From Minisyncoccota bacterium (GTDB lineage: Bacteria > Patescibacteriota > Minisyncoccia > Phycocordibacterales > JABAAK01), in NCBI GenBank assembly GCA_965216295.1, contig OZ244141.1, forward strand, positions 4,864 to 68,863: a stretch of DNA of 64,000 nucleotides, written 5' to 3'. Within the stretch, counting starts at the first letter, position 1, and each line of letters opens with the position of its first letter. This document shows positions 3,905 through 59,213 of this stretch, piece after piece. The notes beneath the pieces are model-generated. The model had not been told where the DNA came from. It did not search any database and was given only the letters and a program-made list of their open reading frames with translations. Made by a program: the position numbers and the translations under genes.

Positions 3905-5361
<1,457 letters not shown>

Positions 5362-7873: not shown

Positions 7874-7899
7874 GTCAGCACAGTATACACCTTTCCCCC

Positions 7900-9822: not shown

Positions 9823-10005
9823 ACAGTATCATTGTATAGTACGGTACCATGTATACAAGATAGCGAGTATGGAACAATTTTGGAAAGGACTTTGTATTGG
9901 CCTCTTTTGTATTGGAGCGCTATGGTTCTTCGTTGGTTTCGGTGCTTTCGATATACTCTGCTTTGGAGACGATAAATGCGTGCTCCCCATCTCTACGTAG
10001 TGCCT

Positions 10006-11616: not shown

Positions 11617-11705
11617 AAACGTTGTATTGATTGTCTATCATGCTGTTGCTTGCGCTCCATAGTGAAAATAGCGAAAGCACTATACCACAATCACTTCGCT
11701 ACACA

Positions 11706-23560: not shown

Positions 23561-24951
23561 TTAAATATTGGGTATACTCCTCGTCCCTTCTTTCACCCGA
23601 GGGAAAAATGATCCCTGAAAACCCTCTCCCCCTGGTGGTGTAACTGACTGTTGATTTTCTACCTTTTGATCCTTTTCTTGTGGTACATCATCTTGGCTAC
23701 TTGTTGGTACGTTATCATTGGTGGAGTAAGCTTCTGGAGCACTGAAAACTCGGGAGGGTAAGTTTGCTGGTTGTATTGTTGATTCTTGTAGTATTGTTCC
23801 TTGTGTTGGTTGTACGAATGGTTGTCGTTTTTCTTCTACTTTTCGTTCTGCTGGTTTTAGTACTTCAATAGGGAGAGGAGGAATAGGGAGAGGAGGAGTT
23901 GATGTTTGAATGCTTGGTGCGCTGAGAGAATCAGGGTATCGGAAGGCACTATCAATATTGAGATCAATGAAACGGTCAAACTCTTCTCTTCTTTCAGTCT
24001 CTATCACTGCTTGTTTTTCAATCTCCACTTGTCTTTCTCTTTGCCTTTCTCTTTCATCAACATCCTCTTGTTTTTGTGTTCTGAGGGTAGTGATTCTTTC
24101 AAGGAGTGCGTTGATTGCTTTTCTGAGCATAGTAATGGTGCCGGTGGTGGTATCACCACGGTCTGGTTGTTGAATGATGATTACTTCTTCTTCTGGTATG
24201 GGTTGTTCTGTTTGTTCTTGGATGTGCTGTATGGTTGCTGGTCCGAGGACACCGGTTGGTGCAGACAGTCCTAGTGGAGTGAGTATTTCTTCTTTGTATG
24301 CTTCTTGGTATTGTTCCAGAGCTCTCTTGGTTGCTGGTCCAAAGTATTCTGTTTCTTGTCCTGGTGATCCTGCTCCTTGATCTGTAACGGTGAATCCTTG
24401 ATTGTTGAGGAACTGTTGTAGTTGTTTCACTTCTTTCTCTTCATCTCCTAGTTTGAGAGGTTTGGTGAACAAGAGTGTTTCTTGTGTTGTTGGGAGAGCG
24501 GGTGCTTTGTCGGTTACTACTTCTTCCTCTGTTGGTGTCTCTATGACTTCATCACCATTTGTTACGATTTCTGGTGCCTTGATGCTTCGTGAACCATTGC
24601 CACCACCGCTGCCGCCACTTGAAGCTATTCTAAAGGAATCAAGGGTTATGGCATTTGAGAGGTTCCCTGCTTCATCAGTGAACTGAATAGTACAGTCATC
24701 ATATGTCTCTGAACTTGGAGAGTTGATGGTGATGGTATAGTCTGCAGAATCATTTGAAGTAGAGATATACTGTCCTTCAATGACTGAGAAGTCAGAACAC
24801 TTTCCAGCAAAGACAGGGGTGAGTATCTCTTCTTCTGTAGCAAAGACAGATGCTTGATTTCTGGCAACAGTTACTTCTAAGTACGGCTTTCTCTTGTTTG
24901 ATACATTAAACTGTTCTCTGACTGATACTGTTGGTGCTTGGTTGTCTACTC
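23561..24951 (-). repeat. Copy 1 of the conserved C-terminal anchoring module shared by the giant genes (about 1.39 kb). It is nearly identical at the DNA level to 35998-37355, with a shorter related copy at about 17790-18180.
   Basis: Identical stretches of hundreds of nt are visible, for example cttggttgctggtccaaagtattctgtttcttgtcctggtgatcctgctcc in all three genes. Antisense ORFs 23906..24274, 36325..36678 and 17751..17972 encode the same peptide. Confidence 0.7.
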
Positions 24952-27900
24952 TGACTCGAAGAGAGACAGTATTACCTCCCGCATCAGTGACACTCGTATC
25001 TGACACCCTTCGCACTCCTGGCGCTGCTCCCGCAGGAACTCTCACTGCTTGGGTAAAGGAATATGGGACGGTTGTTCCAGCAATACTAATTGTAGTGATG
25101 TCAGTAAAGGTGAAAGACCTTGTATATAATTCACCATCTCCTTTGGTGAATGGGAAAGAAGTCTGGACTGGTGCTGTGGTATCTATAAACAGATTGAACG
25201 GAATTGCCCTATCTGATGTATTTCCAGCGTAATCATCTATGGTAACTGTGATACTATTTTCTCCATTTGCAAATGAATGTCCTGAAAGCCGTATCACTTT
25301 GCCTGTAGCACACTCACCACCATTGTCCACTATAGTTATAGTTCCATCAGTTACAAAAAAGTCACCGTCATAGAATTTCACTTTACTGCTATCTGTATAT
25401 GCGGAATCAGCTATGGATAGCCCACAAGCATAGATAGTTTGCCGATTTGTATTTGTGAAAGCAGCATTACTATCAAGTGTCAAAGTAGGTAATTTTACTG
25501 TATCGATGGTGATTGAGAGTAACTTAATCCTTATTGTTTCTACCGTTTCACCTACAGGAGTTATTGATCCAGCTATATCATATTCACCTTGTGGCAAAGT
25601 AATAGCATCTGTAGTAAATTGTCCAGTTGTAGCATCTGCAGCAAACTCCGGCAGTAGTGGTGCCCACGCTTCAGTGCCTCGTTCTGTTTTATATAGATGA
25701 ACGGTAGCACCTGCTGGTGTAATTCCACTGAGTCCTATTGACGTTGTTCCAACATATATTACAGATTCTACAACACTAGATATTATGCTTGTATCTGATA
25801 ATGCCAACCCTGCTACACCATCTTCTCCTTCTTTTGAGTTTTTGTATCCTTTGTTTCCTGCTACATCAGTTGCTGCAAAACAGAGTTGTTTAGGGTTATT
25901 GCCACCAGTAGTTCTCAAAATGACTGGACTTTTATATGATATATACGGTGTTTGAACAGAACAATCAACTGATGCAGCAGAAGAGGCAACAGTTGTCTGG
26001 AAACTATGCATGATTGTTGTGGTTAAATCTTCTGCGGCCGCAACAAATCCTTCGTTCCCGTTAGCAACTCCTGCTTTAATAATACTAACGACTGGAGGTG
26101 TCGTATCCACCACAAACTCTAGAGAACTGCCATACACTGAGTTTCCAGCAGCATCAGTTGTTTGTATACATATCTTTTGTGAACCTTCTGTCAGTCCCGC
26201 CGCCTCATTAGTTATTGGGTTTGTGTAGCTAGAGGTGTCGTCACACTCTACGGTAGACTCTACAAGTGCAAACGAATCAAAGATACCCGCTGTCGTAACT
26301 GTCGTACCAAGCGATATGCCTACGGTGTTGAGCCTCTTTGCCTTTTTTTCTTTATTGAGGTACTGAGGAGTTGTGAAAGTGAAAAGATCAGAAGAGAATA
26401 TAAAGGTAGAGGCAGTTGCAGGTGCTTGTGTATCGAGCGTAATTGGTAGGAGCGGTAATGGACCTACTTCTACACCATTGGCATCAGTTACGTAGCCGAA
26501 GAAGTTATTCCGACCTTCTTGTAAGTCTACCACCTCAGTCTGGAAGGTCTCATCACTTTCAACTTCAACAGGGAGATCATCTCCATCCGAATTTATAATT
26601 CTAACTCCTGTTGTTCCTGCAACAGCTGTTCCCATGAGACGAACTGATGTTGTCTTGGTAATTCTGTCACCTTTAGCAGCAGTATCATCATCGGAAACAA
26701 TACCAAACTCAGATATCAATGGATCTTGTGCGTTGACACTTGATTGATATGCATATGCTTGATAAATACCTTCAGTTAAGAGAGATGTGAAACAAGCCTT
26801 GCCTGTTGTTGTTTCGATTTCAGAACCTTGAACATAAGGGGTTGGTTCTACTGTATTTACTCCACAGGTAGCACTGCTTGATAACAAATCACTTGTTGCG
26901 ATGGCTTGCGTAGAAGTATCCAATGCAACAAAACTATTGGCATTATCTGTTCTATAGACACTCCATTTTGAAGGAGTTAGGGTCTCAGGAAATTGAATAG
27001 AATCTGATTCATTACCCGCTCTATCTTTTAATTTGTATGTTACAGTTGCAAATGGCTTGTCTGGTGATGCACTCGTTGTAATTGTGTATTGATCAGAATC
27101 CACAAGATCATATGAAGGTGTTTCTTCTATAGCAGTACTGTCGTCATATATAGAAACATCTCCCACATCACTGTCTGCATTTCTTGTAATCGTAAATGCA
27201 TGTTTATTTCCTGCGGTCAGTGTTGGGTTATATACATACACAAAACTTGCCAATTCAGACTCAGTTGGTACTACCGTATCTAGTTGTATATTCAAAATGT
27301 CTGATAGTGGGCTGTGAAGACCCCCATCATCAAACGCTTGTACTCTAATTTGATACTCTCCATCTTGAGCAAGTATCTCCTCATCAAATTCAAACACTTT
27401 TGAAAATTCATATATCGTGTTTTCACCTGAGGTGCCTGATACTACTCCCCATTCACCAGCAGATGGTTTTTCTATAGGTATTACTTTTGGAGTGTTGTCA
27501 CCGTACAGTATCGTGAGCTCAATATAATCAACCGCTGTCTCTGAGCCTGCGATTTTCTCTCCATTTGTTTTACCAAACTGTCCTGATATCTGCCATCCAT
27601 CGACCACATTGGTGATACCATCACTGTTTGATACTCCCGTGTCATCACTTTGCAGTAGTCTCAAGTTGGTTATCTTTTTTGGTATTTCCAAGAATTTAAT
27701 CTGTGTTGTATCTATTCCCTGAACCATGTTACCAGCCCTATCCACTGCAAACGCTGTGACTTGATACCAAGCATCATACGATCTCGAATTGCCATCTTCA
27801 CCAATTCCTAAATCAATATACGGTATATTAACAGAGTATCCATCTTCATTTTCCACTAGTATAGTCCCCTGTTTGTAACCACTACTCGTTGGATCAAACG

Positions 27901-30900
27901 CTACATCATTTGGATCATCTATGAGGTTACCGCTATCTTCTTCAACAATCTGTCGTCTCAAAAGTATTGCATAATATTCAAGATCTTCTTTAGCAGATTG
28001 GGATCTACCGTCTGAACCAAAAGTTATATCAGTTGCAGTAGTTTGAACATTACTACTTATTTCTAGATCATTGAACCAAGATATTGGAGGAGTATTATCA
28101 ATGGTAAGTGTATAGACTGGTGTTGAGGCAATGTCGGAGAAGTTTCCCGCTTCATCTGTTTGCAATGCAACAAAGTAAAATTCTCTTCCATTAACTCTCT
28201 CTTCATCTATTATGGTATCACTTGTATATGTTTCAACAACACGCTTATTAGTATTAGCATCAAAGTTTGTTACGTCATAGACATTTGCTGTGTAAGGATT
28301 TTCAGGTGCCTGTCCAACAGGTTCCAGCGTATCCCTATCTATCTCATCTCCCTCTGCAAACACATCAACAGGTATTCTGTATAAGAATATCTGATAGTTG
28401 TCATCGTCATTGTCATTACCTGACGTGAGAGTGAAGTGTAAATTATTTATCTTGTTTGTGATGTTATCTGTATTTGTTCCAACTCTCAGTGTGTTATTGT
28501 ATTTTCCAAAGGTATCATCCTCATCAATAAGATTTGGTATTAAAGGTATAGAAGGTGGTGTGGTGTCTATGGTTATGATAAGACTATTGTTTTCAAGTGC
28601 TGAAACATTTCCAGCTGCATCTCTTACTTGGAATCGGATGTCATACTCTCCATCGACAAGATCAGAAATAGCAACATTGTTTCCAAAGGCAATCGTTGCT
28701 GAGTTCCCTGTTTCTGCTATTATAGTTAAATCTTCTGGATCTACATCCGTACCCTCTGTGGTTTTGTTATAAATGTATGTCTTTACTGTCTCGCCATTTT
28801 CTAAACTTTCTATTTCAAAGTTTGGTGTTGTGTCGTTTGTTTTGTTGTCTCCTTGTACACCAGAATCGGAATCACCAGTAAGAACAAAAGGATTATTCCC
28901 TTCAGGTACTACTGTGTCGCGAGTAAAGTCGTAATTTGCATAAGATTTGTTTTTGTATTGGTTTACAGATCGCACACATACCCTGTAATCCCCATCTGCT
29001 GTCATGAAACTGTCATCAGTCTTTATGGGTGAGTCATAGGCAGTGCTACTGTCATCGCCATAGTCTTCACTGTCACATGAGGTATCTGCAGTGACTATTT
29101 TGTATCTAAATTGAACATTGGAAGCGGGGTCTGCCGTAACTATCGCACTAGAAGGATTCTGCCGACTGAGGACAAGATTTAGATAATTCTTCGCATCCGT
29201 TTGTGGGTCTGCATCATCATCGTATTCCACCATATCTTCGTTTGCTGTAAAGACAGTGTCGTGTACGACAGATGTGTAAGTAAATCTAAACACTCTATAT
29301 GCTATGTTCCCCGCATAATCAAAGAATCCAAGACAAAGACCGTACTCTTTGCCAGTCTCAAAGAGAGTATATGATACAGGATAAAATGTATTAGTATGAG
29401 TGCTATGGATGGTAGTGTATGAGATGCTCTCACAGTCGCTCTCTTCAAAGGAACTTGCTGTCAAAAGAACTCCAGACTGTATATTCAAGAGTGATTCTTC
29501 TGGGGTGTTTGTTGTTACAATAGGCAAAGATTTGCTACTATTTTCTATATTCAAATAATATGTAGGCCCGATTTTTACAAGGACATTTTCATCAGGAGTT
29601 ATGACAAGCCCACTTAAGTCTGGAGGAGTGGTGTCGTAGGTTATATCTACAGTTTCAGATCCTACTGATGTCTCAGTGATTCCTCCTGTCTTTGAGACTG
29701 TGTATCTTGCTCTCACTTTATACTTGCCTTCACCGTGGTTATCTAGATCTATTGATGCTACTAATGGATTTGATGTAATTGTCGCTGTCTGCCAATTCTC
29801 TCCATCATCTAAACTGTATTCTACAGATGTTAAAGTCCCTCCCTCAGGAATAGTCGGGATGGTGATAGAAACTAGTGGGTCATTAGTGCTGCCATCTTTA
29901 ATGGCTTGCTCATTGCTATTGTGTACTGCTTGACTCCTGCCGGATGCAACATCAACCACGCTGGAAAGACCAACATCAGTAAATGTAACTGTAGGAGGAG
30001 TAAGGGGAGGCTTGGAAGGGTTGTAGTTTAATGTTGCACCAAAATGTGAAGATGTGTCTGGAGACGCATACCCAAGGGCATATGAAAACTCGTAATCAAG
30101 CCTTGATTCTAGATGGTTGTCCAACTGTATCTCTACCGCAGATTCCATACTTGCCGGGTATCCTTTTATTTGAAATCCACTAAGGGACTGATTATCACTC
30201 ACATCCTCCGTTAAACTTATCACTATCTCGTTTTCTGGACCTTTTGTATACACAGGACTATCGAATAAAATATCAACACTACGAGAACTGACAACTTCGT
30301 AAGCAGTCAAACCTTGTATAGCATCTTGTCCCGAACTGTCTGATCCACTTACAGTTACTGCATTGGAGTCGTCGAAGTTATCAAGGAAACCACCTAATCC
30401 AAATTTAACGGCAGTTATGACATATGGCTCAGTAAATTTTATTACTAGTTTTTCAGGATATGCTTGACTACTATTATCATCAGCTGGTTTTTTTACAAAA
30501 ACCACCTCTCCGACTTCTGAAGAAGAATAGACAGTGGAAAAAATATCATTGGCGTAATACACACAAGAGGTTGCTGCAGTGAGTGAATCATCAGCATCTC
30601 CATAATAGGTTTCATATGGACTGCCATCTAACCCAAAGAATTTACAATAGCTAAATTCTGGGACAACTGTCTTGTAATCATTGGGCAAGTCTTTGGATAC
30701 TCTTGCTGGGAATTGTCCTCGTGCAAGGTATGGGCTGTTAGTAGTATCTGTTGTGATGGTTATGGGGTTAGAAGTGTCTGTGTCTGTCCACATTGCACTG
30801 TACGGATTATCATTGGTTAGATTTATTGTTTTTATTGCAAAATGATCACCTGGTCTTCCTACTATACGCAAGATTGGTGTGGTAGGAATTTCTGGTGGAG

Positions 30901-33900
30901 ATACTGCGATGGTTGGGATTTGCTTACGACCGAGTGTAAGGATGTATTTAAAAGCTGTGAACCCAGTGTTTTCTAAATCATCTTTTTGCCTTATCACTGT
31001 AAATCTTTCACCAGAGTTGAGTTTTGCACCTGGTGTGATTTCTGCTGTGTCGGAGGTGGTGTCGGCATACTCAGAACCCCTTAAATGCCCATAAAATATT
31101 TCAAACCTGAATCGGTCTTTATAATTGGAAAGTGATGCGTTAAAAGTTGTTGTAATGGAGATAACTATATTATTTCCATCAAAATAAACCCCTTGAATCT
31201 TCCCCCCAACAAAATCGAAGGCATTAGAACCTACCGGTGAAAACAAGGACCCCTTGCTAGCCAAAAGGTTTGCACCATATCCTGCAATTGTACTGAACTC
31301 TATATCTCTGTTGAGTAATTTTCCATTTAGGTCTACTGCACGCACAAGCATTTTCCCATTCTCCTTTATCAGACTCGCATCTTGATCTATGATAGGAAAG
31401 CTGTATGTGCCTATAGATGTAGGCGATGCGCCTGTAGTGGTGAGTGTGGTGTCTGAAAGGGTTAGAGAGGTTTTCTTAGCATAGACATCATAAGACCATT
31501 GGGTTCCTTCTACAGTTTCCAGATCTGAAATAGAAAGAGTGGGGTCACTTACCAGGTCCTCAGCATCCTCTGTGTCGTCTTTTAAATTCACAGTCGGTGG
31601 ATTTGGTGGAGCTTTGTCAACCTGAAAGTTAAATACTTTGTATGATGTATTTCCAAAACTATCCTTAAGTCTAAAACAGTTAGCCCATCTACCGTCTGGT
31701 ATAGGGTCTTTTACATTGCCGATGGTGTATCTATTTAGCATATAGTGCTTAATCACAGGCGTGGTGGAATATCCTGAATCGATTCTACTAAGAAGACCAA
31801 TATATTGAGAAGATGTAGGGTCACAGTAACTATCGGGTACATCACCAGTTGTAGATATTGGCTTTGTTCCAAAAGAACGTATTACTGGGTCTGGATATCC
31901 TTCTGAGTCTAACTCTAGAATTATATCTTCGGGCTCACCATAGAAAGTGTTGGAGGTTATAAAATATCTAGGCACTCCTCCCTCTATTTTTTCTATAAAG
32001 GCACTTGGGTTTATATTAAAGGTGAGAGGTTGAGGTGGAGATGTGTTTACTTCTAAGTCTAGAATTTTTTTAATCGCTGTGGGATCTAAACCTGATGCAA
32101 TGACAGATGCTCCTATGTCATATCTGCCATTTGCGAAGGTTTGTATAGGTACTTCAAACGTCCCATCTACTGACACCGCTACTTCAATGGGTGCCACTGT
32201 CCAACTGAGCGAGTCGGAGTGTGCTTGTATGTATATATTCACTTGTGTATTTGGCACCGATAATCCTGTGAAGGATATTTCGCCATCTTTTGTGTATCTT
32301 ATGTCATCCACTGTCTTACCAGCAACTTCTTCACCATTTGCGGTAACAGGTAAAAATTTTGTAACCGTACCGTCTTCTGAATTTTTAGAATTTTTATATG
32401 ATATATTTCCCACAAAGTCGGTTGCCTTGAAACATGTTTGGTTTTCTACAAGTGGGGTTGTTGGTGAGAGAGATGTAACCCAAGCATATACAATGTCTGG
32501 CGGTGTGTAAGATTCATAAGTCAAAGCGGCACTCGTACAATCCGCCAGACTGTCTGTCATAAGGGTGGATGTCCTAGAAAACTCAAATGTAACTAATCCT
32601 GCAGACTCTGCTTGTGGGACATATCCTGTTAAACCGCTGTTATTAATACCTGCATTGAAAATTTTAATCGGTGCTGGTTTTACAAGAGTGAAAAAGAATT
32701 TGATTGACCTAAAATTGAATGCGGCATCTGGGTTAGCAAAACATGTATAATATTTTTGATGTGAGTAAGTATCGTTTGTTCTTAAATCTTTAGGGGATAT
32801 CACCGTTCCACTCTCGAAGTAATCATAGTCTCTTGCATATTCTGAGAAAGAACACGGATTGTTCTCTGCATTTGCATCTATATCAGAGTAGTTGAATTCC
32901 GAAGAGAGCACACCCTCTGGTGGTGACAAAATCACTAAAGGTCTAGTATCGTTGCCAACCTTACTGAATGCTAAGTAATTGACACCACCTTCTGTTTGTA
33001 TAACAGCAGGATTTCCTGTAACAGTGTACTCTGAGGGAAGCGTTCTATCTACTGTGTATTGGAAAGATACATAGACACCGGCTCCTTCAATCTCTCCTTT
33101 TACACATATCTTATATGTGGTTCCATCTGCGATAAAGCTTGAGTCTTGGTTTGTGGGGATTGATGTATAAGGATAATTACTTATATTTTCACACTGTGTG
33201 CTGCTTACATTTGATCCTGACCTAACAGCATATTTTATATTGGCTGAGCCGTTTGCAGATACTGTAAATATCGGTACTGCATTTCCATCTGCCCTATACT
33301 CTGCCCCTTGTATGTTTAGATAATTTACACCCTCATTGCTGTATATTACCCTTGAATTGGGTGTGATGACGGGTGGTTTTGCAGTGGAAAAGTCTAACTG
33401 TGCCTCTGTGCTGATATTACCTGCTACATCAGTTTGCTGTGTATATATTGTATGAGATTCCAGACTAAGACTGGTTGTCGAAATGGTGGTGCTAGTCCCG
33501 TCAACATAAGAACCATCGTCTAGTTTATATTTCCAAGACGAACCAGATACTGTCTCCAAGTCGCCTATTGTTATAGTTTCAGCTGATTTATCAAAAGAAA
33601 GTGACGGAGGAACAGGGTTGACAAAGTCGAGTTCGACTGGACTATTTACCACACCGGCCTCACCAGTTTCTCCATACTTATCTGTTGTAAACACTTTTAT
33701 TTCTATAGTCCCAGTGTCGGTAATGATGATGGTATTGCCTGTGCCTACCATATTTTCATCTCCATTTTTCGTTATTTGAACATCATTCACTTTGTATGAG
33801 TATGTCCAAGATGCCACCTCTTCTGATATTGCGACAGTAAAAATCCCATTGTTTGTAATACCGTCAGTATCACTGTATCCAGTGTCTTCTTGAAGAATTG

Positions 33901-35995
33901 CCTGAGGTCCAGTTGGTCCACCACCTTTAGTTACCACAAAATCAAAGGAACCATAGTCTGTATTAGCAGACAAAGAATTGATAACCTTAACACAATATCT
34001 ATAATTTCCACTCCTCCTACTGTAATTATTGAAATATTTGTTAGTTATATCGTTATGTGTAGAAGCATATTCTGTATCTGCAATAGTTTCACAGGTCTGC
34101 TCAGCCCCTGGATTAAGTATAAGAGCGGATGTTGTTGTAATGTCAGCTGAGGGGTTTGTCGTTATTGTAAATAATCTACTAGTCTGTTGTGTGTGTTCAA
34201 TTGTTTGATCAGTCAAAAACCGTATAGTGTTGCCATTCTCCTCTATCTGACCAAAGATTGAGTTTGGTACAATGGTGATTGTTACAACTGAATCATAAGT
34301 GGCTTTAAACCTAAAAGGATCAGTTACCCCTGTTCCACCACCACTGCCTCCTAGTCTTGCTTGGACACAGAAGATGTAATCGTTGCCGTGCACTATACTA
34401 CTGTCGTCATTTTTTATGTTACCTGCTTGGTAGGATGCATTGTCTGTAGGACACACCTTAGAATTATCACTATTATCCTCAGAGACATGATAGTGATACG
34501 AAACTTGACGGTCCAGTGTGGGTGGGGTTTCTGGGTCTGTTGTAAATATATCAACAGGATTACCGTTGTCCCTTTGGGTTCTATTTTCAGAGTTTAAGAA
34601 ATAATTCCCAGAATCTGCCGGATATTCTGTAATATTGGCAGGGACAATAGTAGGGATAGGTGGGTTGTTGGATATGTGCTCCGCCGTAAAAGAACTAAAA
34701 TCCTCTAAAATAAAAGATGGTGAAGATGATGACGAAGGTGCTCGTGCATATGCGAATTCATACCTATTAGGATATGATGTGTCAGGAGACTTGACCTGTA
34801 GCGAAGTTACACCCGCTGGAAATCGACCTCGTGCAAAGTTATTTCCTCCGCTATCTGTAGTGATAGAAATTGGAGAGGTTGTGTTTTGATCTACCCAGGT
34901 AAGAGGCCCATCTGTTCCATTGATCTTACTTAATATAGCAAAATAGTCTCCCGCTTCTCCAGTTATTGTAAGAACACCTTCATCGGTTATCGTTGGTGTG
35001 TCTGGACTTACAAAGGGAGTTCTGTATCCTCGATTTGGGCTCTGAGTCAAACCATCATCGCCATTTAGAAAATATGAAAAAGTATAAACCTTACCTCTAT
35101 CTAAAGACTGTGCTGGTTGTATGTACACATCTAATTCTGGCACTTTATTTCCGAAAATAAATAAACGCCCAACTATAGTTGCCACCAGAGCATTTGATTC
35201 ATATTCTATATCTAATGTGTTTTCAGCTCCATATGTATGTATAGGATCAACGAAAGTATACCCATCTGAGTCAATAAACTCACTCAGGTTTACAGTTACT
35301 TCATTTATGGTAAGCGTTCCGCTAACATTAGTACTTGATGCCAAACTGGTTTTAATCCTAGTTATGATAACTGGCTCATCAAATTTTATTACCACTTTTT
35401 CAGCATCACGACTAGATATTACACCCTTCTTATCGTACACACTAATTTTGTCCCCTCTGCCAAAATCGGCTATATAACTGTAAATACCATCATTCGTAAA
35501 ACAATTTCCACCATTCTTCCCAGCCTCAGTATTAATATTATAACCACCAGTTTTTATAAATGGATTGCCTGCTCGGTTATAAACTTTGCAAGAAGTAATA
35601 ATTGAATTACCAGACGATCGGATTGATAAAATATCTTCTTCTGCTGATTCAGAAAATTGCCCTCGTGCAAGGTATGGGTTACTGCCACTTGTAGTGATTG
35701 TTCTGGGAAGAGCAACATTCTTCTCTACCCAAGTAATATGTGTGACGGCAGATTCAATTTCACTTGCTACATCAAAAGTCCGACTCTGATCAGAACCTGT
35801 TATTTTAATAATTGGTTTTAATGGATCATCCGTGTTTACTATCTCTGGTCGTAAAGGGTCTACCGCAAAAGTAGCCTGAGTGAATATAAATGCAGATATC
35901 ACCAAGAAAAAGAGTCCCCAAACATATGATTTGGAGTGAAGATTATTCATTTTTTGTTTTTTCATTCTACTTGTCATATTACTACAATTATACAT
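23561..35995 (-). CDS. Giant secreted/surface protein of 4144 aa, with Ig-like/adhesin-type repeats and the same C-terminal peptidoglycan-binding anchoring module.
   Basis: N-terminal signal peptide (..VWGLFFLVISAFIFTQATFA). Many VDTTPP, VDKAPP and DTTAP domain boundaries. Its ATG overlaps the TAA of the upstream giant gene (TAATG). The C-terminal roughly 460 aa are nearly identical to the C-terminus of the 3715-aa protein. Confidence 0.8.
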   Translation of the reverse strand: MYNCSNMTSRMKKQKMNNLHSKSYVWGLFFLVISAFIFTQATFAVDPLRPEIVNTDDPLKPIIKITGSDQSRTFDVASEIESAVTHITWVEKNVALPRTITTSGSNPYLARGQFSESAEEDILSIRSSGNSIITSCKVYNRAGNPFIKTGGYNINTEAGKNGGNCFTNDGIYSYIADFGRGDKISVYDKKGVISSRDAEKVVIKFDEPVIITRIKTSLASSTNVSGTLTINEVTVNLSEFIDSDGYTFVDPIHTYGAENTLDIEYESNALVATIVGRLFIFGNKVPELDVYIQPAQSLDRGKVYTFSYFLNGDDGLTQSPNRGYRTPFVSPDTPTITDEGVLTITGEAGDYFAILSKINGTDGPLTWVDQNTTSPISITTDSGGNNFARGRFPAGVTSLQVKSPDTSYPNRYEFAYARAPSSSSSPSFILEDFSSFTAEHISNNPPIPTIVPANITEYPADSGNYFLNSENRTQRDNGNPVDIFTTDPETPPTLDRQVSYHYHVSEDNSDNSKVCPTDNASYQAGNIKNDDSSIVHGNDYIFCVQARLGGSGGGTGVTDPFRFKATYDSVVTITIVPNSIFGQIEENGNTIRFLTDQTIEHTQQTSRLFTITTNPSADITTTSALILNPGAEQTCETIADTEYASTHNDITNKYFNNYSRRSGNYRYCVKVINSLSANTDYGSFDFVVTKGGGPTGPQAILQEDTGYSDTDGITNNGIFTVAISEEVASWTYSYKVNDVQITKNGDENMVGTGNTIIITDTGTIEIKVFTTDKYGETGEAGVVNSPVELDFVNPVPPSLSFDKSAETITIGDLETVSGSSWKYKLDDGSYVDGTSTTISTTSLSLESHTIYTQQTDVAGNISTEAQLDFSTAKPPVITPNSRVIYSNEGVNYLNIQGAEYRADGNAVPIFTVSANGSANIKYAVRSGSNVSSTQCENISNYPYTSIPTNQDSSFIADGTTYKICVKGEIEGAGVYVSFQYTVDRTLPSEYTVTGNPAVIQTEGGVNYLAFSKVGNDTRPLVILSPPEGVLSSEFNYSDIDANAENNPCSFSEYARDYDYFESGTVISPKDLRTNDTYSHQKYYTCFANPDAAFNFRSIKFFFTLVKPAPIKIFNAGINNSGLTGYVPQAESAGLVTFEFSRTSTLMTDSLADCTSAALTYESYTPPDIVYAWVTSLSPTTPLVENQTCFKATDFVGNISYKNSKNSEDGTVTKFLPVTANGEEVAGKTVDDIRYTKDGEISFTGLSVPNTQVNIYIQAHSDSLSWTVAPIEVAVSVDGTFEVPIQTFANGRYDIGASVIASGLDPTAIKKILDLEVNTSPPQPLTFNINPSAFIEKIEGGVPRYFITSNTFYGEPEDIILELDSEGYPDPVIRSFGTKPISTTGDVPDSYCDPTSSQYIGLLSRIDSGYSTTPVIKHYMLNRYTIGNVKDPIPDGRWANCFRLKDSFGNTSYKVFNFQVDKAPPNPPTVNLKDDTEDAEDLVSDPTLSISDLETVEGTQWSYDVYAKKTSLTLSDTTLTTTGASPTSIGTYSFPIIDQDASLIKENGKMLVRAVDLNGKLLNRDIEFSTIAGYGANLLASKGSLFSPVGSNAFDFVGGKIQGVYFDGNNIVISITTTFNASLSNYKDRFRFEIFYGHLRGSEYADTTSDTAEITPGAKLNSGERFTVIRQKDDLENTGFTAFKYILTLGRKQIPTIAVSPPEIPTTPILRIVGRPGDHFAIKTINLTNDNPYSAMWTDTDTSNPITITTDTTNSPYLARGQFPARVSKDLPNDYKTVVPEFSYCKFFGLDGSPYETYYGDADDSLTAATSCVYYANDIFSTVYSSSEVGEVVFVKKPADDNSSQAYPEKLVIKFTEPYVITAVKFGLGGFLDNFDDSNAVTVSGSDSSGQDAIQGLTAYEVVSSRSVDILFDSPVYTKGPENEIVISLTEDVSDNQSLSGFQIKGYPASMESAVEIQLDNHLESRLDYEFSYALGYASPDTSSHFGATLNYNPSKPPLTPPTVTFTDVGLSSVVDVASGRSQAVHNSNEQAIKDGSTNDPLVSITIPTIPEGGTLTSVEYSLDDGENWQTATITSNPLVASIDLDNHGEGKYKVRARYTVSKTGGITETSVGSETVDITYDTTPPDLSGLVITPDENVLVKIGPTYYLNIENSSKSLPIVTTNTPEESLLNIQSGVLLTASSFEESDCESISYTTIHSTHTNTFYPVSYTLFETGKEYGLCLGFFDYAGNIAYRVFRFTYTSVVHDTVFTANEDMVEYDDDADPQTDAKNYLNLVLSRQNPSSAIVTADPASNVQFRYKIVTADTSCDSEDYGDDSSTAYDSPIKTDDSFMTADGDYRVCVRSVNQYKNKSYANYDFTRDTVVPEGNNPFVLTGDSDSGVQGDNKTNDTTPNFEIESLENGETVKTYIYNKTTEGTDVDPEDLTIIAETGNSATIAFGNNVAISDLVDGEYDIRFQVRDAAGNVSALENNSLIITIDTTPPSIPLIPNLIDEDDTFGKYNNTLRVGTNTDNITNKINNLHFTLTSGNDNDDDNYQIFLYRIPVDVFAEGDEIDRDTLEPVGQAPENPYTANVYDVTNFDANTNKRVVETYTSDTIIDEERVNGREFYFVALQTDEAGNFSDIASTPVYTLTIDNTPPISWFNDLEISSNVQTTATDITFGSDGRSQSAKEDLEYYAILLRRQIVEEDSGNLIDDPNDVAFDPTSSGYKQGTILVENEDGYSVNIPYIDLGIGEDGNSRSYDAWYQVTAFAVDRAGNMVQGIDTTQIKFLEIPKKITNLRLLQSDDTGVSNSDGITNVVDGWQISGQFGKTNGEKIAGSETAVDYIELTILYGDNTPKVIPIEKPSAGEWGVVSGTSGENTIYEFSKVFEFDEEILAQDGEYQIRVQAFDDGGLHSPLSDILNIQLDTVVPTESELASFVYVYNPTLTAGNKHAFTITRNADSDVGDVSIYDDSTAIEETPSYDLVDSDQYTITTSASPDKPFATVTYKLKDRAGNESDSIQFPETLTPSKWSVYRTDNANSFVALDTSTQAIATSDLLSSSATCGVNTVEPTPYVQGSEIETTTGKACFTSLLTEGIYQAYAYQSSVNAQDPLISEFGIVSDDDTAAKGDRITKTTSVRLMGTAVAGTTGVRIINSDGDDLPVEVESDETFQTEVVDLQEGRNNFFGYVTDANGVEVGPLPLLPITLDTQAPATASTFIFSSDLFTFTTPQYLNKEKKAKRLNTVGISLGTTVTTAGIFDSFALVESTVECDDTSSYTNPITNEAAGLTEGSQKICIQTTDAAGNSVYGSSLEFVVDTTPPVVSIIKAGVANGNEGFVAAAEDLTTTIMHSFQTTVASSAASVDCSVQTPYISYKSPVILRTTGGNNPKQLCFAATDVAGNKGYKNSKEGEDGVAGLALSDTSIISSVVESVIYVGTTSIGLSGITPAGATVHLYKTERGTEAWAPLLPEFAADATTGQFTTDAITLPQGEYDIAGSITPVGETVETIRIKLLSITIDTVKLPTLTLDSNAAFTNTNRQTIYACGLSIADSAYTDSSKVKFYDGDFFVTDGTITIVDNGGECATGKVIRLSGHSFANGENSITVTIDDYAGNTSDRAIPFNLFIDTTAPVQTSFPFTKGDGELYTRSFTFTDITTISIAGTTVPYSFTQAVRVPAGAAPGVRRVSDTSVTDAGGNTVSLRVRVDNQAPTVSVREQFNVSNKRKPYLEVTVARNQASVFATEEEILTPVFAGKCSDFSVIEGQYISTSNDSADYTITINSPSSETYDDCTIQFTDEAGNLSNAITLDSFRIASSGGSGGGNGSRSIKAPEIVTNGDEVIETPTEEEVVTDKAPALPTTQETLLFTKPLKLGDEEKEVKQLQQFLNNQGFTVTDQGAGSPGQETEYFGPATKRALEQYQEAYKEEILTPLGLSAPTGVLGPATIQHIQEQTEQPIPEEEVIIIQQPDRGDTTTGTITMLRKAINALLERITTLRTQKQEDVDERERQRERQVEIEKQAVIETERREEFDRFIDLNIDSAFRYPDSLSAPSIQTSTPPLPIPPLPIEVLKPAERKVEEKRQPFVQPTQGTILQESTIQPANLPSRVFSAPEAYSTNDNVPTSSQDDVPQEKDQKVENQQSVTPPGGEGFQGSFFPRVKEGTRSIPNI

Positions 35996-38900
35996 TAGAA
36001 ACCTTCGCCATTAAATCGCAAAGCATCTCTTTCCACTTCCACCCGAGGGAAAAATGATCCCTGAAAACCCCCTCCCCCTGACTGTTGATTTTCTACCTTT
36101 TGATCCTTTTCTTGTGGTACATCATCTTGGCTACTTGTTGGTGCGTTACCATTGGTGAAGTAAGCTTCTGGAGCACTGAAAACTCGGGAGGGTAAGTTTG
36201 TTGATTGTGTTGTTGATTCTTGTAGTATTGTTCCTTGTGTTGGTTGTACGACTGGTTGTCGTTTTTCTTCTACCTTTCGTTCTGCTGGTTTTGGTACTTC
36301 AATAGGGAGAGGAGGGGTTGATACTTGAATGCTTGGTGCACTGAGAGAATCAGGGTATCGGAAGGCACTATCAATATTGAGATCAATGAAACGATCAAAC
36401 TCTTCTCTTCTCTCGGTCTCTATCACTGCTTGTTTTTCAATCTCCACTTGCCTTTCTCTTTCATCAACATCCTCTTGTTTTTGTGTTCTGAGGGTAGTGA
36501 TTCTTTCGAGGAGTGCGTTGATTGCTTTTCTGAGCATAGTAATGGTGCCGGTGGTGGTATCACCACGGTCTGGTTGAATGATGATTACTTCTTCTTCTGG
36601 TATGGGTTGTTCTGTTTGTTCTTGGATGTGCTGTATGGTTGCTGGTCCGAGGACACCGGTTGGTGCAGACAGTCCTAGTGGAGTGAGTATCTCTTCTTTG
36701 TATGCTTCTTGGTATTGTTCCAGAGCTCTCTTGGTTGCTGGTCCAAAGTATTCTGTTTCTTGTCCTGGTGATCCTGCTCCTTGGTCTGTAACGGTGAATC
36801 CTTGATTGTTGAGGAACTGTTGTAGTTGTTTCACTTCTTTCTCTTCATCTCCTAGTTTGAGAGGTTTGGTGAACAAGAGTGTTTCTTGTGTTGTTGGGAG
36901 AGCGGGTGCTTTGTCGGTTACTACTTCTTCTTCTACTGGTGTCTCTGTGACTTCATCACCATTTGTTACGATTTCTGGTGCTTTGATGCTTCGTGAACCA
37001 TTGCCACCACCGCTGCCGCCACTTGAAGCTATTCTAAAGGAATCAAGGGTTATGGCATTTGAGAGGTTCCCTGCTTCATCAGTGAACTGAATAGTACAGT
37101 CATCATATGTCTCTGAACTTGGAGAGTTGATGGTGATGGTATAGTCTGCAGAATCATTTGAAGTAGAGATATACTGTCCTTCAATGACTGAGAAGTCAGA
37201 ACACTTTCCAGCAAAGACAGGGGTGAGTATCTCTTCTTCTGTAGCAAAGACAGATGCTTGATTTCTGGCAACAGTTACTTCTAAATACGGCTTTCTCTTG
37301 TTTGATACATTAAACTGTTCTCTGACTGATACTGTTGGTGCTTGGTTGTCTACACGAACCAATAACTCAATACTGTTTCCTGAGAGATCGGCAACGAATA
37401 GTCCAGTAGATCTAGTTCCAACTTCCGCAGCAGATGGAACAGCAACTTCTCTGGTGAAGGTGTTTTGTATCCTTGTATTTGCTGCGTTATTGTTTATTAT
37501 CTGTAGTTCGTTTGCATCGGTAACGGTAAATGAAAGTCTTTTGGTAACACCAGATTGTACAAAAGGAAAGCCTGTCTGAACTGGTGCTGTAGTATCTACA
37601 GTAAATGTGCCAATACTGGTTGATGCAACATTACCTGCGTAATCTTCTGCTTGAACGGCACAATTGTTGTAGACAAATCCGTCTTCAAGTGCTGACCCAT
37701 TTGATGATGTAAGTGTGATAGTTTTTGAACCTGTTAGGAAATCACTTAACGGTGTATTAGTGCCACATAATCCTGTAACACTCAATCGTACATACTCCTC
37801 AGCTTGTACACGTATAGCGGGTATTGTGAACGATGTTATTCTTATAACTGGTGCGGAGTTGTCTATTACTAGATCAAAAACTTTTACAACAGTGGTGTGT
37901 GGTGAATCTGCAGATGGTTTGATAGAACCGGCTACATCATAGTCTCCACTTGAAAGTGATACTGATTCTGAAACAAAGCTACCATCTGTGCCAGAGTTTG
38001 TGGTTAACACATGTAATGCATTTGATTCTGACCAGTCTGTGTTGCCCTCTAGTGCTATATATAACTTTACTTCTGTATTTGGTGATGTCTGTCCCTTAAA
38101 TGTTACTGAGTTTGCCTTTGTATATCTTTTATCATCTCTTGAAGTTCCAGGAGCGCTATCATCAATTGTAATACTTGCTATTCCCTCTATTGCTCTTTTT
38201 GAATTTCTGTATCCTATATTTCCTGCTGCATCAGTTGCCTTGAAACATATTTGATTGTTGGTAGATATGGTGCCACCAGTATATGAAGTATATGAGGATG
38301 AGTAACCTTGAGCAGAACAATTTTCAGCAGCGGCACTGTTGGCTTTGTCTGTCTGAAAACTTTGTATTGTTGTGGGCGTCAAGTCGCTTACCGTTGCTGC
38401 AAACGTATCATTCCCTACTTTTATTATTGTTATGTTCGGTGTCGTGATGTCTACTGTAAAGAGGAATGAGTTGGATGTACTGTATGCCGTGTTACCAGCT
38501 ATATCAGAATTTTTAACACATATCTTTTTATCACCATCAATTAAGCCTACGTTGTCATTTGTTATTTCTTCGGTGTAATCAATCACACTACTATCACATT
38601 CAGTCGTTGCATCAACAATTGCATAGTTATTAGATACACCAGTAACCGCAGTCACAGATCCTAATGATGCTGGTGTGCCTGTGCTGTATATGTTTGCACC
38701 ATTTAGATATTTTGTAGTGGTGCCGGTTAACAATGCAGATGGAGTGAACTTTGATATTGCTGGACTCTTTGTATCTAAAGTAATGGTTGGAAGTGTTGTT
38801 GGCCCTATCTCTGATCCATCTATAGTGATGTAGCCTGAAAAAGTGTTTATTCCTTCATGTAATTCAGTCGATGGAATATTGATAAGTCCATTGTCATCAG

Positions 38901-41900
38901 TAGTACCGTTGTATACTTCTGTTTCATTTTTTTCAAAAACATCAACTTTAAACTTTCCTGTAAACAAAGCTTGTCCTTTGGTGATAGAGCTACCTGGCTC
39001 AATTGGTTCTCTTAGTTCTGCAATTCTAGTAAATTCAACACCAGTGGTACTCCCAAAATTCCCACTGGTGCTCCATCCTTTTACATCATATGATTTACCA
39101 GACTCTTCATTGGTTATTCTTATGTATGCCTTCTCAAAAAATGCATCGGTACCAATATTAAATCGATACGCAATCCCATTGATTTCAAGTGCAGTAAGAG
39201 TATTAAAGAGATAGGTTATTGTTTCAATAACCACATTTTTCTCTTCTGAGGTACCCTTTCCCAAAGTAAAAGAGATGATACCTCCTGGGGCTTCTCCAAG
39301 ATTAGATACCCGCAAATTATTTTTCGAATACCCTGTATGCTTATTATTATCTCCAGTTTGACCACCACTAGTAATCACTCCGCCATAAACAGATTGATGT
39401 ATAACTCTAGCTGGAGTGTTTGGTAGAGTGACACCTTGAAGATCTGGAGACACTACGTTGGTTATCCTGTCATTATTAGACACGCCTGTATCTTCATCTG
39501 CCACAACACTAAAGTCTGATATTAACGAAGAAGCTCTTTTTGAATTTTTGTATCCTATATTTCCTGCTGCATCAGTTGCCTTGAAACATATTTGATTGTT
39601 GGTAGATATGGTGCCACCAGTATATGAAGTATATGAGGATGAGTAACCTTGAGCAGAACAATTTTCAGCAGCGGCACTGTTGGCTTCGTCTGTCTGAAAA
39701 CTTTGTATTGTTGTGGATGTAAGATCATTTGCCACTGCTATAAATTCATCATTGCTTGAAGAGTCTTGCCCTACTTTTATTATTGTTATCTCTGGTGCCG
39801 TAGTGTCTACTGTAATATTTGTGCTCCCGTATACCGTGTTACCAGCTATATCAGAATTTTTAACACATATCTTTTTATCACCATCAATTAAGCCTGCATT
39901 GTCATTTGTTATTTCTTCGGTGTAATCAATCACACTACTATCACATTCAGTCGTTGCATCAACAAGTGCATAGTTATTAGATACACCAGTAACTGCAGTC
40001 ACAGATCCTAATGATGCTGGTGTGCCTGTGCTGTATATGTTTGCACCATTTAGATATTTTGTAGTGGTGCCGGTTAACAATGCGGATGGAGTGAACTCTG
40101 GTACTGCTGGACTCTTTGTATCTAAGGTAATAGTTGGAAGTGTTGTTGGCCCTATCTCTGATCCGTCTATAGTGACGTAACCCAAGAAGTTGTTTACTCC
40201 TTCTTGTAATTCAGTCGCTGGAATATTGATAAGTCCATTGTCATCAGCAGTACCGTTGTATATTTCTGTTTTCGCTTTTTCAAAAACCTCAACTCTAAAC
40301 TGTCCTGTAAAAAAAGCTTGTCCTTTGGTGATAGAGCTACCTGGCTCAATTGGTTCTTTTAGTTCTGCAATTCTAGTAAATTCAACACCAGTGATACTCC
40401 CAGTATTCCCAATGCCGGTCCAGCTTTTTACATCATATGATTTACCAGATTCTTCATTGGTTATTCTTATGTATGCCTTCTTATTAAAAAATGTATAGGT
40501 GTCAATATTAAATTGATACGCAATCCCTTGGACTGAAGCTTCAGTATCATCAAAGATATAGGTTATTGTTTTAATAACCACATTGCTCTCTTCTGAAGTA
40601 CCCTCTCCCAAAGTAAAAGAGGTACCGCTTGCTGGAGCTATTCCAAATCCAGTCTTATCAGTCCCAGATATACTGTCCGAATACCCTGTATGCCTATTAT
40701 TATTTCCTAGTGCATTAATACCACCAGTAAACACTTCGTTATAAACAGATTGGTAACCGTCGTGTATAACTCTAGCTGGAGTGTTTGGTAGAGTGACACC
40801 TTGAAGATCTGGAGACACTACATTGGTTATCCTGTCATTATTGGACACACCTGTGTCTTCATCTGCCACAACACTAAAGTCTGGTATCAATGAACTTTCT
40901 GCATTACTACTGGTCTGGTAAGAGTTGGTTTCATACCGTCCTTCAGTTAAGCTAGACTGAAAACATACTGTTGCTTCAGAAATATTTACCACGGTACCTT
41001 CTGTGTAAGAATCATATCCGTCGGATACACAACCTTCAGATTTTTTTAAGATAGTACTTGAAGATGTATCATCAACTGCAACATATTGAGTAGCATCTCC
41101 TTCAACATCATAGATACTTATCTCTACAGGGACTATGGGAAGTATGATAAGGTCTGATATATTACCTGCTGCATCAACTAATTTATATCCTATGGTCAAA
41201 GGAAGATCACCAAGGGTGGTATAGGAACCATTAAAAATATTACTTGCATTAAAAACATAATTGCCTTCATTGTATATATTACTTTCCGTATCGTCGTCAT
41301 TAATTCTTACTATCTCTATGTCTCTAACGTCACTTGCGTCGTTTCTAGATGCTGTAAATGTGTGTTGAGTGTTCGAATTATTTTCTACGATTTTGTTATA
41401 TGCATATTTAAATGTTAATAGATCTTCTGCTACTGGAACTATGGTATCAAGAGTTACATTTAATGCGTCAGAAGACGCTCCTTCTTCTCCACTGGCGTTA
41501 AATGTCCTTGCTCTTATCTCATATGCCCCATCGATACCTACAAATCCGTTTTCATTTAACGAAATTGCCTCACTAAACTGATAAATTGTATCATCACCAG
41601 ATCCTGTTGATGCCCACCCATCATCTGGTTTCGGTATGTCTACTGTTCTTACATTAGATGTTCCGTCTGTGGTGGGATAACCAATACTTATCTGAACTAA
41701 TGTTACTGTTGTTTCAATATCAAAGTTTTTTTCTCCTTGTGTCTTTGGAAATTCACCAGAAATTGTCCACACATCATTATCGCTAGTGATATTATCATCA
41801 TCTGCTACACCTGCTGTATCATCATCAGAAGACAAGTCTATATTCTCTGGAATAGGTGGCGCTTCTAAAACCTTAATGTTTGTAGTATCTGATCCTGCTC

Positions 41901-48937: not shown

Positions 48938-49426
48938 ATGACCAAAATAGATACAATCAAGTATCAAAACGCAATTTTGTATTTTATACAACATTGTAAC
49001 AACGAACACCTCGGTGCCACCAAATTAAACAAGTTGGTGTACTACTTAGATTTCTTGCATTACAGAGATGCCGGCAAAACCGTAACGGGAGATATATACA
49101 CGCACAAACAGTATGGTCCTGTTCCTAATTCCATAGATTACATCATTAATCTCCTTCAAAAAGAAGACAAGCTAGCCGTCACTGAAAATCCTTTTAACGA
49201 TGAGAATAGTGGACATCGGAAGAAGTATGAAACAAAAGTAGCCTCTGATACGTCTTGTTTTGATAAAGAGGAATTGAAGCTTTTACAAGGTATCTGCAAA
49301 GCATTCGAACAGTATAATACTCAAACAATTGTTGCCCAGACACACCTGGAAGCCCCTTGGTTTTACTCCAAGCCGCATGAAACTATTGATTATGAATACG
49401 CAAAATCAATAGATGTGAAAGTTTAG
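48938..49426 (+). CDS. DUF4065/Panacea-domain (SocA-like) antitoxin.
   Basis: ATKLNKLVYYLDFLHYRDAGKTVTGDIYTHKQYGPVPNSIDYI matches the Panacea/GepA core. Confidence 0.55.
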   Translation: MTKIDTIKYQNAILYFIQHCNNEHLGATKLNKLVYYLDFLHYRDAGKTVTGDIYTHKQYGPVPNSIDYIINLLQKEDKLAVTENPFNDENSGHRKKYETKVASDTSCFDKEELKLLQGICKAFEQYNTQTIVAQTHLEAPWFYSKPHETIDYEYAKSIDVKV

Positions 49427-49434
49427 TATGTGGT

Positions 49435-49848
49435 ATGTGGGAACCGCAAGAATATAAACAACGACCAGAGTTTCAAAAAACAGTAAAAAAACTAAAATTG
49501 AATCCTGCGGTTGAGAAACATCTTGTAAGTTCCATAGATAATTGGTTGCAGAGTGAACACGATCATTTAATAGCATTACCAACAAAAAAACTTTTATGGC
49601 AATCTAAGGATAAAAACGTAAAAATATTTTGTGTGAAAATACCAAGTCCAGACAGACAATCTGGTAAAAGTGGTGGGTATAGATTAATCGTAATTTATTC
49701 TATTAGTGAATGTGTTGCAGAAGTTGGGAAAATTTTTGACAGAAGAAAGCTCGGCTTTAAAGGCAGTTCTGGTAAAGATGATAGTAACTATGATGAGCAT
49801 ATTGCTGATTTAAAAAAAGAATACACACGCGAGCCCAAAGAGTGTTAA
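49435..49848 (+). CDS. RelE/HigB-superfamily toxin-like protein.
   Basis: 137 aa, with SGKSGGYRLIVIY resembling the HigB/RelE GGYRVIY core. It starts 8 nt after the Panacea ORF. Confidence 0.45.
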   Translation: MWEPQEYKQRPEFQKTVKKLKLNPAVEKHLVSSIDNWLQSEHDHLIALPTKKLLWQSKDKNVKIFCVKIPSPDRQSGKSGGYRLIVIYSISECVAEVGKIFDRRKLGFKGSSGKDDSNYDEHIADLKKEYTREPKEC

Positions 49849-55080: not shown

Positions 55081-55203
55081 ACTCTGTAAGTATGGATCAA
55101 TATAGTCCCTTTTAAGAATGTCTCTATAGTAAAACTGTATGTACTCACCAGGAAGAATAACGGTGCACAGCAAGGAAGTCATGCCCGTGAGTAATATTGC
55201 AAG

Positions 55204-55276
55204 TCCACCCGCCTGGACTTGAACCAGGAACCGCTCGTGTATAAGACGAGTGCTCTACCAATTGAGCTACAGGTGG
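55204..55276 (-). tRNA. tRNA with anticodon UAU (tRNA-Ile reading AUA).
   Basis: The reverse complement gives CCACCTG TA GCTC AATTGGTA GAGC A CTCGT-CTTATAC-ACGAG ... CCTGG-TTCAAGT-CCAGG CGGGTGG A. The anticodon loop has U33 and A37 in place. Confidence 0.65.
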
Positions 55277-59161: not shown

Positions 59162-59213
59162 TTTCTATTCCTCTCTAGGGAGTCATCTCACCCCACCCGA
59201 GGTGGCTCCCTAC

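Follow-up and report, generated by a model that had tools for sequence, protein, structure and literature searches.

Three giant genes stand in tandem in the 64,000-nucleotide (nt) stretch of a Minisyncoccota bacterium genome analysed here (contig OZ244141.1, positions 4,864 to 68,863 of the forward strand; hereafter the window), and the two largest end in a nearly identical tract of about 1.36 kb, although the coding sequences just upstream of it have diverged to saturation at synonymous sites. Overall, these tails are very probably the product of gene conversion between old tandem paralogs, in at least two events, with the lineage of the gene here called g3715 as the probable donor. The three genes are as follows.

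35995-47142, minus strand: g3715, a giant gene of 3715 amino acids (aa), the first of the three tandem paralogs, with signal peptide, Big_13 and PG_binding_1
23561-35995, minus strand: g4144, a 4144-aa giant gene, the second paralog, with the architecture of g3715
17496-23516, minus strand: g2006, a 2006-aa giant gene, the third paralog, 44 nt downstream of g4144

The open reading frames (ORFs) are intact, co-oriented and tightly packed, each with its own start; the stop codon of g3715 shares 1 nt with the ATG of g4144, and the array takes up 29.6 kb of a source contig of 511,782 bp. One signal peptide stands at the N-terminus of each protein, made of its sole hydrophobic segment and, after it, a cleavage-like site rich in Ala (3/3), and Pfam finds Big_13 immunoglobulin-like (Ig-like) domains upstream of the tail in all three (E-values 1e-44 to 7e-12). 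The tails can be divided into converted and unconverted parts, with the three longer indels that separate the g4144 and g3715 copies:

23590-24949, minus strand: converted tract, g4144 copy, 1360 nt, codons 3683-4134; probably the recipient
36036-37353, minus strand: converted tract, g3715 copy, 1318 nt, codons 3264-3701; probably the donor lineage
17748-18151, minus strand: short tract in g2006, PG_binding_1 and the start of the heptad helix, matching 24071-24453 and 36478-36857
23564-23589, minus strand: unconverted end of g4144, the last ~8-10 codons, ...KEGTRSIPNI
35998-36035, minus strand: unconverted end of g3715, the last ~12-14 codons, ...EVERDALRFNGEGF, overlapping the ribosome-binding region and start of g4144
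24029-24052, minus strand: 12-nt slippage indel ERERQ(RERQ), within the long helix
23861-23896, minus strand: 15-nt indel PIPPL, within the disordered tail
23621-23647, minus strand: 12-nt indel VTPP, within the disordered tail

In a blastn comparison of the coding strands, the long tract (nt 11047-12406 of g4144 against nt 9790-11107 of g3715) comprises 1360 alignment columns with 27 mismatches and four gaps, which amounts to 94.9% identity, or 97.95% over 1318 nt when the gap columns are left out. Its longest exact run is 302 nt, where chance would give an exact repeat of about 15 nt in 64 kb. About 13 of the 27 substitutions are synonymous and about 14 non-synonymous. The indels, of 3, 12, 15 and 12 nt, are in frame in all four cases, and at least three of them look like slippage products, being placed in short tandem repeats (CAA-CAA, AGAGAAAGRCAA twice and CTCCTCTCCCTATTS twice). 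Identity starts abruptly at the codons for VDNQAPTV and stops after FFPRV, 26-38 nt ahead of each stop codon. Only one of the 27 substitutions falls in the first 370 nt (P=0.0016), and synonymous sites are too few to reveal a younger sub-tract inside the long one. A tblastn search for further copies found no module copy beyond the three, and no inverted copy, in the window. The initial annotation of this DNA had the last ~460 codons of the two genes almost identical and differing only by in-frame indels; the near-identity stands, but the substitutions come in addition, and the two gene ends (23561-24951 and 35998-37355) are not alike throughout, because beyond FFPRV the last 10 codons of g4144 and the last 14 of g3715 differ. 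The two indels that it singled out (ERERQRERQ versus ERERQ, and PIPPLPIEV versus PIEV) are both among the four, the pairwise alignment that it proposed gave the two identities above and ~90% for the short copy, and the shorter PG-binding copy that it placed at about 17790-18180 in the 2006-aa gene is indeed present, with its limits now set at 17748-18151.

The genes g3715, g4144 and g2006 are old tandem paralogs. With blastp, residues 2760-3702 of g3715 are collinear with residues 3157-4135 of g4144, and more blocks align further upstream. The last ~1000 codons were aligned codon by codon and divided into 40-codon windows; upstream of the breakpoint these have 17-61% aa identity and a proportion of synonymous differences (pS) that is mostly 0.7-0.8, which is saturated, whereas inside the tract pS is 0-0.19. 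Synonymous and non-synonymous divergence (dS and dN) between g3715 and g4144 are ~1.87 and 0.64 upstream of the breakpoint and 0.044 and 0.014 in the module, the folded parts of which hold no non-synonymous change. The maximum-chi-square breakpoint coincides with alignment codon 569, where the module opens (VDNQAPTV), and the mismatch rate falls there from 49% on the left to 2.4% on the right; the chi-square of 777 at this breakpoint was reached in 0 of 2000 permutations, the largest permuted value being 18. Neither locus has been lost, nor the DNA between the two, and the flanks are homologous but diverged, a non-reciprocal pattern. The tails are thus of recombinational origin, with breakpoints as mapped. 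The idea of gene conversion had already been put forward in the initial annotation and is borne out by the step in dS from ~1.9 to 0.044, the sharp breakpoint and the incongruence between paralogs and orthologs described below; its view of the upstream ectodomains as unrelated has to be given up, since they align collinearly and, over the 340 residues that precede the breakpoint, with 34% identity.

The short tract of g2006 consists of 404 nt aligned in 407 columns and is 90.4% identical to the g3715 copy and 89.4% identical to the g4144 copy (blastn); a 243-nt core differs from the g3715 copy at one site. Its 5' edge is sharp, at ...CAACTAGGAGATGAAGAG, with ~50% identity to the left and 100% to the right, and its 3' end is at ...RITILRAQK. 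It contains PG_binding_1, a spacer and the first heptads only, and the adjoining Ig-like domain of g2006 is unconverted. Within this tract g3715 and g4144 differ from each other by three substitutions and one indel; at every one of these positions g2006 has the g3715 state, with 0 sites of the opposite kind.

Which of the paralogs supplied the tail? Two relatives served for comparison. P0001 (682 aa, ENA ERZ26869290) was the one close relative returned by a word-indexed search, and P0016 (1818 aa) was added by an exhaustive search, which also returned the window's own three proteins. Over the 340 aa before the breakpoint, g3715 is 51.5% identical to P0001 and 34.1% identical to g4144, g4144 is 36.4% identical to P0001, and g2006 is 26-29% identical to g3715 and g4144. 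In the Ig-like domain of the module, g3715 and g4144 are 100% identical to each other and each 72.6% identical to P0001, with g2006 at 50.9% to both. For PG_binding_1, identity is 97.5-100% among the three window copies and 59-63% between these and P0001 or P0016, the latter two being 74% identical to each other. Orthologous modules in relatives are 59-74% identical in protein and 67-76% in DNA. The contig of P0001 (L001, ctg269087 of ENA ERZ26869290) has the start of another giant gene 20 nt after P0001, and this giant is collinear with the N-terminus of g4144 (35% over 1225 aa) and matches g3715 only by short repeated domains. An ortholog of g4144 behind P0001 means that the duplication that gave g3715 and g4144 is older than the split from the L001 organism; as the tails are younger than that, they are explained by gene conversion. 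Because the Ig-like domain that g3715 and g4144 have in common is P0001/g3715-like, with the unconverted one of g2006 only ~50% identical to it, the tail most likely passed from the g3715 lineage to g4144, an assignment that fails if the L001 paralogs have been homogenised too. From L001 we used local gene order only; the contig carries an inverted self-repeat (439-3963 and 7560-8195, at 96-98%) and is probably a fold-back long-read chimera. Exact look-ups of five window proteins led to no other contig, scans with the module's own peptides returned no relative among genome or metagenome contigs, and the 560 aa that precede the breakpoint in g4144 gave no homolog in a word-indexed search, so the ancestral g4144 tail was not recovered.

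Taken together, non-reciprocal homologous recombination (gene conversion) between the paralogs would have produced the near-identical tails in at least two events. In one, a 1.36-kb tract of g3715 type would have overwritten the tail of g4144; in a separate one, a ~0.4-kb tract of PG_binding_1 and heptads only, with g3715 as its best match, would have homogenised g2006 with the other two genes. A few point changes and slippage indels would then have accrued in the copies. A selective benefit of a uniform anchor is putative, as is a RecA pathway for the exchange; the tails could also have been homogenised neutrally, as a side effect of recombination among paralogs that stand in tandem.

Three further features of the giant genes are recorded here in their own right. 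A short conserved block upstream of the module (25818-25891, 38183-38256 and 39524-39597), which encodes ...NQICFKATDAAGN..., has a g4144-g3715 synonymous divergence of ~0.33-0.37, against 0.7-0.8 around it, and may be what is left of an earlier conversion tract that has since eroded. Within g3715, 38192-40894 is a tandem duplication with a unit of ~1.35 kb (~450 aa), 86.7% identical overall with patches of 92-97%, which suggests partial homogenisation again, and g2006 has internal repeats at 72-92%. The mismatches between converted copies are also strongly skewed to transitions, at 26:1 in the long tract (T/C 15, A/G 11, one transversion) and 9:0 in the g2006 tract (P ~9e-6 against a 2:1 expectation); the ratio is 96:48 in the older internal repeat of g3715 and ~1.4-1.8:1 in the tails of a second genome introduced below. 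The transition sites have no common surrounding motif, and two of the changes are tandem ACA<->GTA doubles. A raw mutation spectrum in cells without mismatch repair, or deamination, is a possible cause of this bias.

Could the module instead be the handle of a dedicated switching system, by which ectodomains are varied through cassette exchange, inversion or a diversity-generating retroelement? Boxes that encode anchors are so used in some S-layer systems, as in the Lactobacillus slp inversion (PMC3666127), and the giants of the second genome are mosaics of one another. Nevertheless, programmed variation is an improbable explanation: each of the three genes is full-length and they all point the same way, the annotated neighbours include neither a recombinase nor a reverse transcriptase, the window contains no inverted module copy, and the mismatches, with their single transversion, are not adenine-specific. 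Two specific forms of it were rejected as candidates, a diversity-generating retroelement target (the mismatches are not A-specific and the annotated ORFs include no reverse transcriptase domain) and silent-cassette or inversion variation of the C. fetus sap or L. acidophilus slp type (the genes are complete and co-oriented and have signal peptides, and inverted copies are absent from the window). When both copies were scanned for promoters and terminators, sites were no commoner than in shuffled sequence.

An assembly artefact, in which a mis-join or a duplicated consensus stands in for two real loci, has little to recommend it. Exact runs of up to 302 nt are enough to confuse assemblers, and a fold-back chimera is plain to see in the related contig L001; but the copies differ at 27 sites and by four in-frame indels with open frames in both, none of the three ORFs is broken and each has a start and a signal peptide of its own, the tract ends within each gene ahead of unlike stop regions, and the junction between the g3715 tail and the g4144 start is syntenic in L001. 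The source contig is also 511,782 bp long, and the same kind of array occurs in a circular genome covered 465x. Very improbable too is that a whole gene was duplicated recently and that the ectodomains then diverged very fast. The giants are in tandem and have their architecture in common, as this would predict, but synonymous sites upstream are saturated with changes as far as the breakpoint, which is step-like, and diversifying selection cannot saturate synonymous sites; moreover, upstream of it g3715 is nearer to P0001 than to g4144, and the downstream neighbour of P0001 is the g4144 ortholog. Purifying selection alone, acting on old tails under strong anchor constraint, can be set aside: the folded module parts are without aa differences and PG_binding_1 is conserved family-wide, but synonymous sites are near-identical too (dS 0.044 against ~1.9 upstream), the unconstrained disordered tail (dN/dS ~0.84) is equally similar, and orthologous modules of relatives are far less alike.

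Several points weigh against gene conversion as set out here, or limit it. The two copies are known from the assembled contig alone. The low number of substitutions in the first 370 nt could be due to constraint and not to several ages within the tract. Orthology depends on a single relative, P0001, that lies on a chimeric contig with a truncated downstream gene, and the donor direction is provisional. The window proteins form singleton clusters, without strain variants in databases, so that ongoing homogenisation and two isolated events are inseparable. Finally, among ~80 other Patescibacteria loci of the same PG_binding subtype, the set of L044, L055 and L059 described below apart, no second near-identical domain copy was found within +/-10 kb, a distance that would miss a 12-kb spacing.

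What does the shared module encode? Its parts are listed in the coordinates of the g4144 copy.

24608-24949 (g3715: 37012-37353), minus strand: Ig-like beta-sandwich domain, module aa 1-114, with Cys51 and Cys86
24470-24607, minus strand: Gly-rich and then acidic disordered linker, module aa 115-160, predicted local distance difference test score (pLDDT) <50
24200-24469 (g3715: ~36604-36873; g2006: within 17748-18151), minus strand: PG_binding_1 of the GSPGQETxYFG subtype, module aa ~161-250
23939-24151, minus strand: long helix, module aa 267-337, opening with three clean heptads, ITMLRKAINALLERITTL (24083-24136)
23590-23938, minus strand: Pro/Gln/Glu-rich disordered tail ending in FFPRV, dN/dS ~0.84

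PG_binding_1 (PF01471) is matched in all three tails at 35.3-35.5 bits (E ~1e-8), above the Pfam gathering cut-off of 23 bits. An AlphaFold2 model built on a 19-sequence alignment has a mean pLDDT of 80 and replaces an earlier run on eight sequences that was too poor (pLDDT 51). It consists of a beta-sandwich (1-113, pLDDT 64-94 by block), a disordered linker (114-155, pLDDT <50), PG_binding_1 (160-250, pLDDT 93-97, with helices at 172-183, 205-222 and 237-248) and one long helix (267-337, pLDDT 81-96 by block); the last ~115 residues of the tract are disordered, as seen in the first model only (pLDDT 51). The hits that Foldseek listed against the PDB are Ig-like folds only, all to the Ig-like domain and weak (E 6e-3 to 5e-2), and sequence matches to PDB PG-binding domains are weak (4nso, E=0.11; 1lbu, E=0.91). 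Cys51 and Cys86 (24692-24799) are invariant across the 19-sequence family alignment, drawn from different genomes, in which the core motif of PG_binding_1 is also seen, and the cysteine pair suggests a conserved disulfide in an extracellular domain. The a and d positions of the heptads read I-L-I-L-I-L and are kept in P0001 and P0016 and in part in P0115. NCBIfam has no family for the module, nor for the neighbouring ORFs of unknown kind.

The three proteins would be secreted giants of Ig-like repeats, each with its N-terminal signal peptide and a tail made up of an Ig-like domain, a linker, PG_binding_1, a helix and a disordered end. They all have the layout of fibrillar-adhesin-like giants, with signal peptide, stalk of Ig-like repeats and terminal PG_binding_1; an adhesive tip domain was not identified in the three giants. 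PG_binding_1 most likely holds the C-terminus in the cell wall non-covalently, as judged from its match in three tails together with a single N-terminal signal peptide and, in the three giants, no LPXTG motif near the C-terminus and no C-terminal transmembrane helix. Sortase anchoring was rejected on the same grounds, as there is no C-terminal LPXTG and no hydrophobic segment other than the signal peptide at the N-terminus. The putative topology is thus export by Sec, a wall-held C-terminus and a fibre of Ig repeats, so that an ectodomain of 2000-3700 residues would project outward from the tail that PG_binding_1 fixes in the wall; the helix may oligomerise the base of this predicted fibre. 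A more speculative proposal, which we consider unlikely, is that the identical cassette of PG_binding_1 and three heptads lets the three fibres co-assemble as a wall-docked hetero-oligomer, with conversion enforcing their compatibility, or else that it is a recombination handle by which an episymbiotic Patescibacterium reshuffles ectodomains between giants, the latter being prompted by the mosaic giants of the second genome. The window also encodes peptidoglycan and export genes, namely MurA-like, FtsW and SecD/SecF.

The extreme C-termini deserve separate mention. A recurrent motif, approximately Y-x-P-I...F/Y-x-V-R...G-A-P-x-F-COOH, occurs in 10 of the 161 fetched proteins, nearly all of this architecture: g2006, P0019, P0038, P0042, P0043, P0052, P0056, P0108, P0109 and P0120. 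The sites looked at were 17499-17540 in g2006 (...FYSNGAPSL) and 35998-36054 in g3715 (...FFPRVEVERDALRFNGEGF). No membrane helix precedes the motif, g4144 does not have it, and the conversion tract halts just ahead of it. It may be an uncharacterised C-terminal signal.

The family is not confined to the window. A pattern scan with GSPGQETxYFG found 80 loci, mostly in metagenome-assembled genomes labelled Patescibacteria, Paceibacterota, Parcubacteria or Saccharibacteria, and ~20 giants of 2-7 kaa in other genomes have the C-terminal architecture in common. As indirect pointers, such relatives make a Patescibacteria (CPR) origin of the window likely. A second array was found in ENA ERZ25072384 ctg341572 (L083 and L084, record 503675-555828), a circular Patescibacteria genome of 647,271 bp at 465x coverage, where P0042 (4210 aa), a 3150-aa giant and P0052 (3068 aa) follow one another in tandem. 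Their 3' regions of 5.4-7.0 kb are common at 92.8-96.6% nt identity, and P0052 is a mosaic with a P0042-like N-terminus, a middle like the 3150-aa gene (96-100% aa), a further P0042-like block and a tail like both. As in the window, these giants have a last Ig-like domain, a Gly run, PG_binding_1 and a tail, with homogenised 3' ends; unlike in the window, the homogenised region includes many ectodomain repeats, there are two PG_binding_1 domains per protein, and the module is only ~39% identical to that of the window. The flanking genes have no synteny with the window, so the second array is probably independent. Three other loci, L044, L055 and L059, are 80-94% similar over whole contigs and were not used as evidence, as co-binned strains cannot be separated from paralogs there; L059 also has internal repeats.

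Other features lie elsewhere in the window. Just upstream of the array, 48938-49848 (plus strand) encodes a 162-aa ORF resembling a SocA/Panacea-domain antitoxin and then a 137-aa ORF without a family match, which may together be a toxin-antitoxin pair. A single 1130-aa ORF at 98-3490 (minus strand) has an N-terminal region of the TrwB/TraG coupling-ATPase type (aa 27-343) and, in its C-terminal part, a complete Mur-ligase region with MurD-like N, M and C domains (aa 705-1108), a fusion that would be unusual, if real. A lone full-length bacterial 16S rRNA gene occupies 3907-5368 (minus strand, 1335 bits), with no 23S or 5S gene within the window; it had no match in any of the fetched loci. A tRNA-Ile gene with anticodon TAT (UAU) is at 55203-55276 (minus strand), and at 58718-59560 (plus strand) an SmpB gene is directly followed by a transfer-messenger RNA gene with the tag AKEKFARAGLVPVPAFA.

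Giant surface proteins fill ~6% of these minimal genomes and are leading candidates for the attachment of Patescibacteria to host cells. The ends that encode their anchors are homogenised in at least two unrelated genomes, which indicates that homologous recombination actively shapes the giant genes. The tracts also delimit a functional unit, the last Ig-like domain with PG_binding_1 and the heptad helix. There is a practical side as well: where such arrays contain repeats of 0.4-7 kb at 93-100% identity, assemblies can come apart or be joined wrongly, and both ortholog assignments and dN/dS scans are led astray.

That anchor regions of surface-protein paralogs undergo gene conversion is well known from pathogens. 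A literature search found no report of it in Patescibacteria and, to our knowledge, both the lineage and the protein family are new for such conversion. In mechanism, the closest parallel is with babA/babB/babC of Helicobacter pylori. These paralogous adhesin genes diverge in the middle, their C-terminal homology region, which codes for the membrane-anchoring part, is >90% identical, and chimeras arise from them by intragenomic gene conversion in the 3' region (~1200-2100 bp) and in the 5' region (PMC4552749). Unlike the giants, the bab loci are dispersed, their anchor is an outer-membrane beta-barrel and their proteins have ~700 aa, compared with 2000-4100 aa; their 5' ends are homogenised too, with phase-variable repeats, and neither is seen here. 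In architecture, the closest parallel is Giant1-5 of Apilactobacillus kunkeei, where ~6% of a small genome consists of consecutive genes for secreted proteins of 3000-8000 aa. Those proteins end in DUF5776 instead of PG_binding_1, paralogs within a genome are <20% identical, and the authors of that study detected no recent conversion between them (PMC12863079), whereas conversion is the main feature of the window. The Lactobacillus S-layer pairs slpA/slpB and cbsA/cbsB resemble the giants in having a conserved, non-covalently wall-binding C-terminal region (~125 aa) and divergent, exposed N-terminal regions (PMC3666127), but they are small S-layer subunits with teichoic acid as receptor, and in them a silent copy is exchanged by chromosomal inversion.

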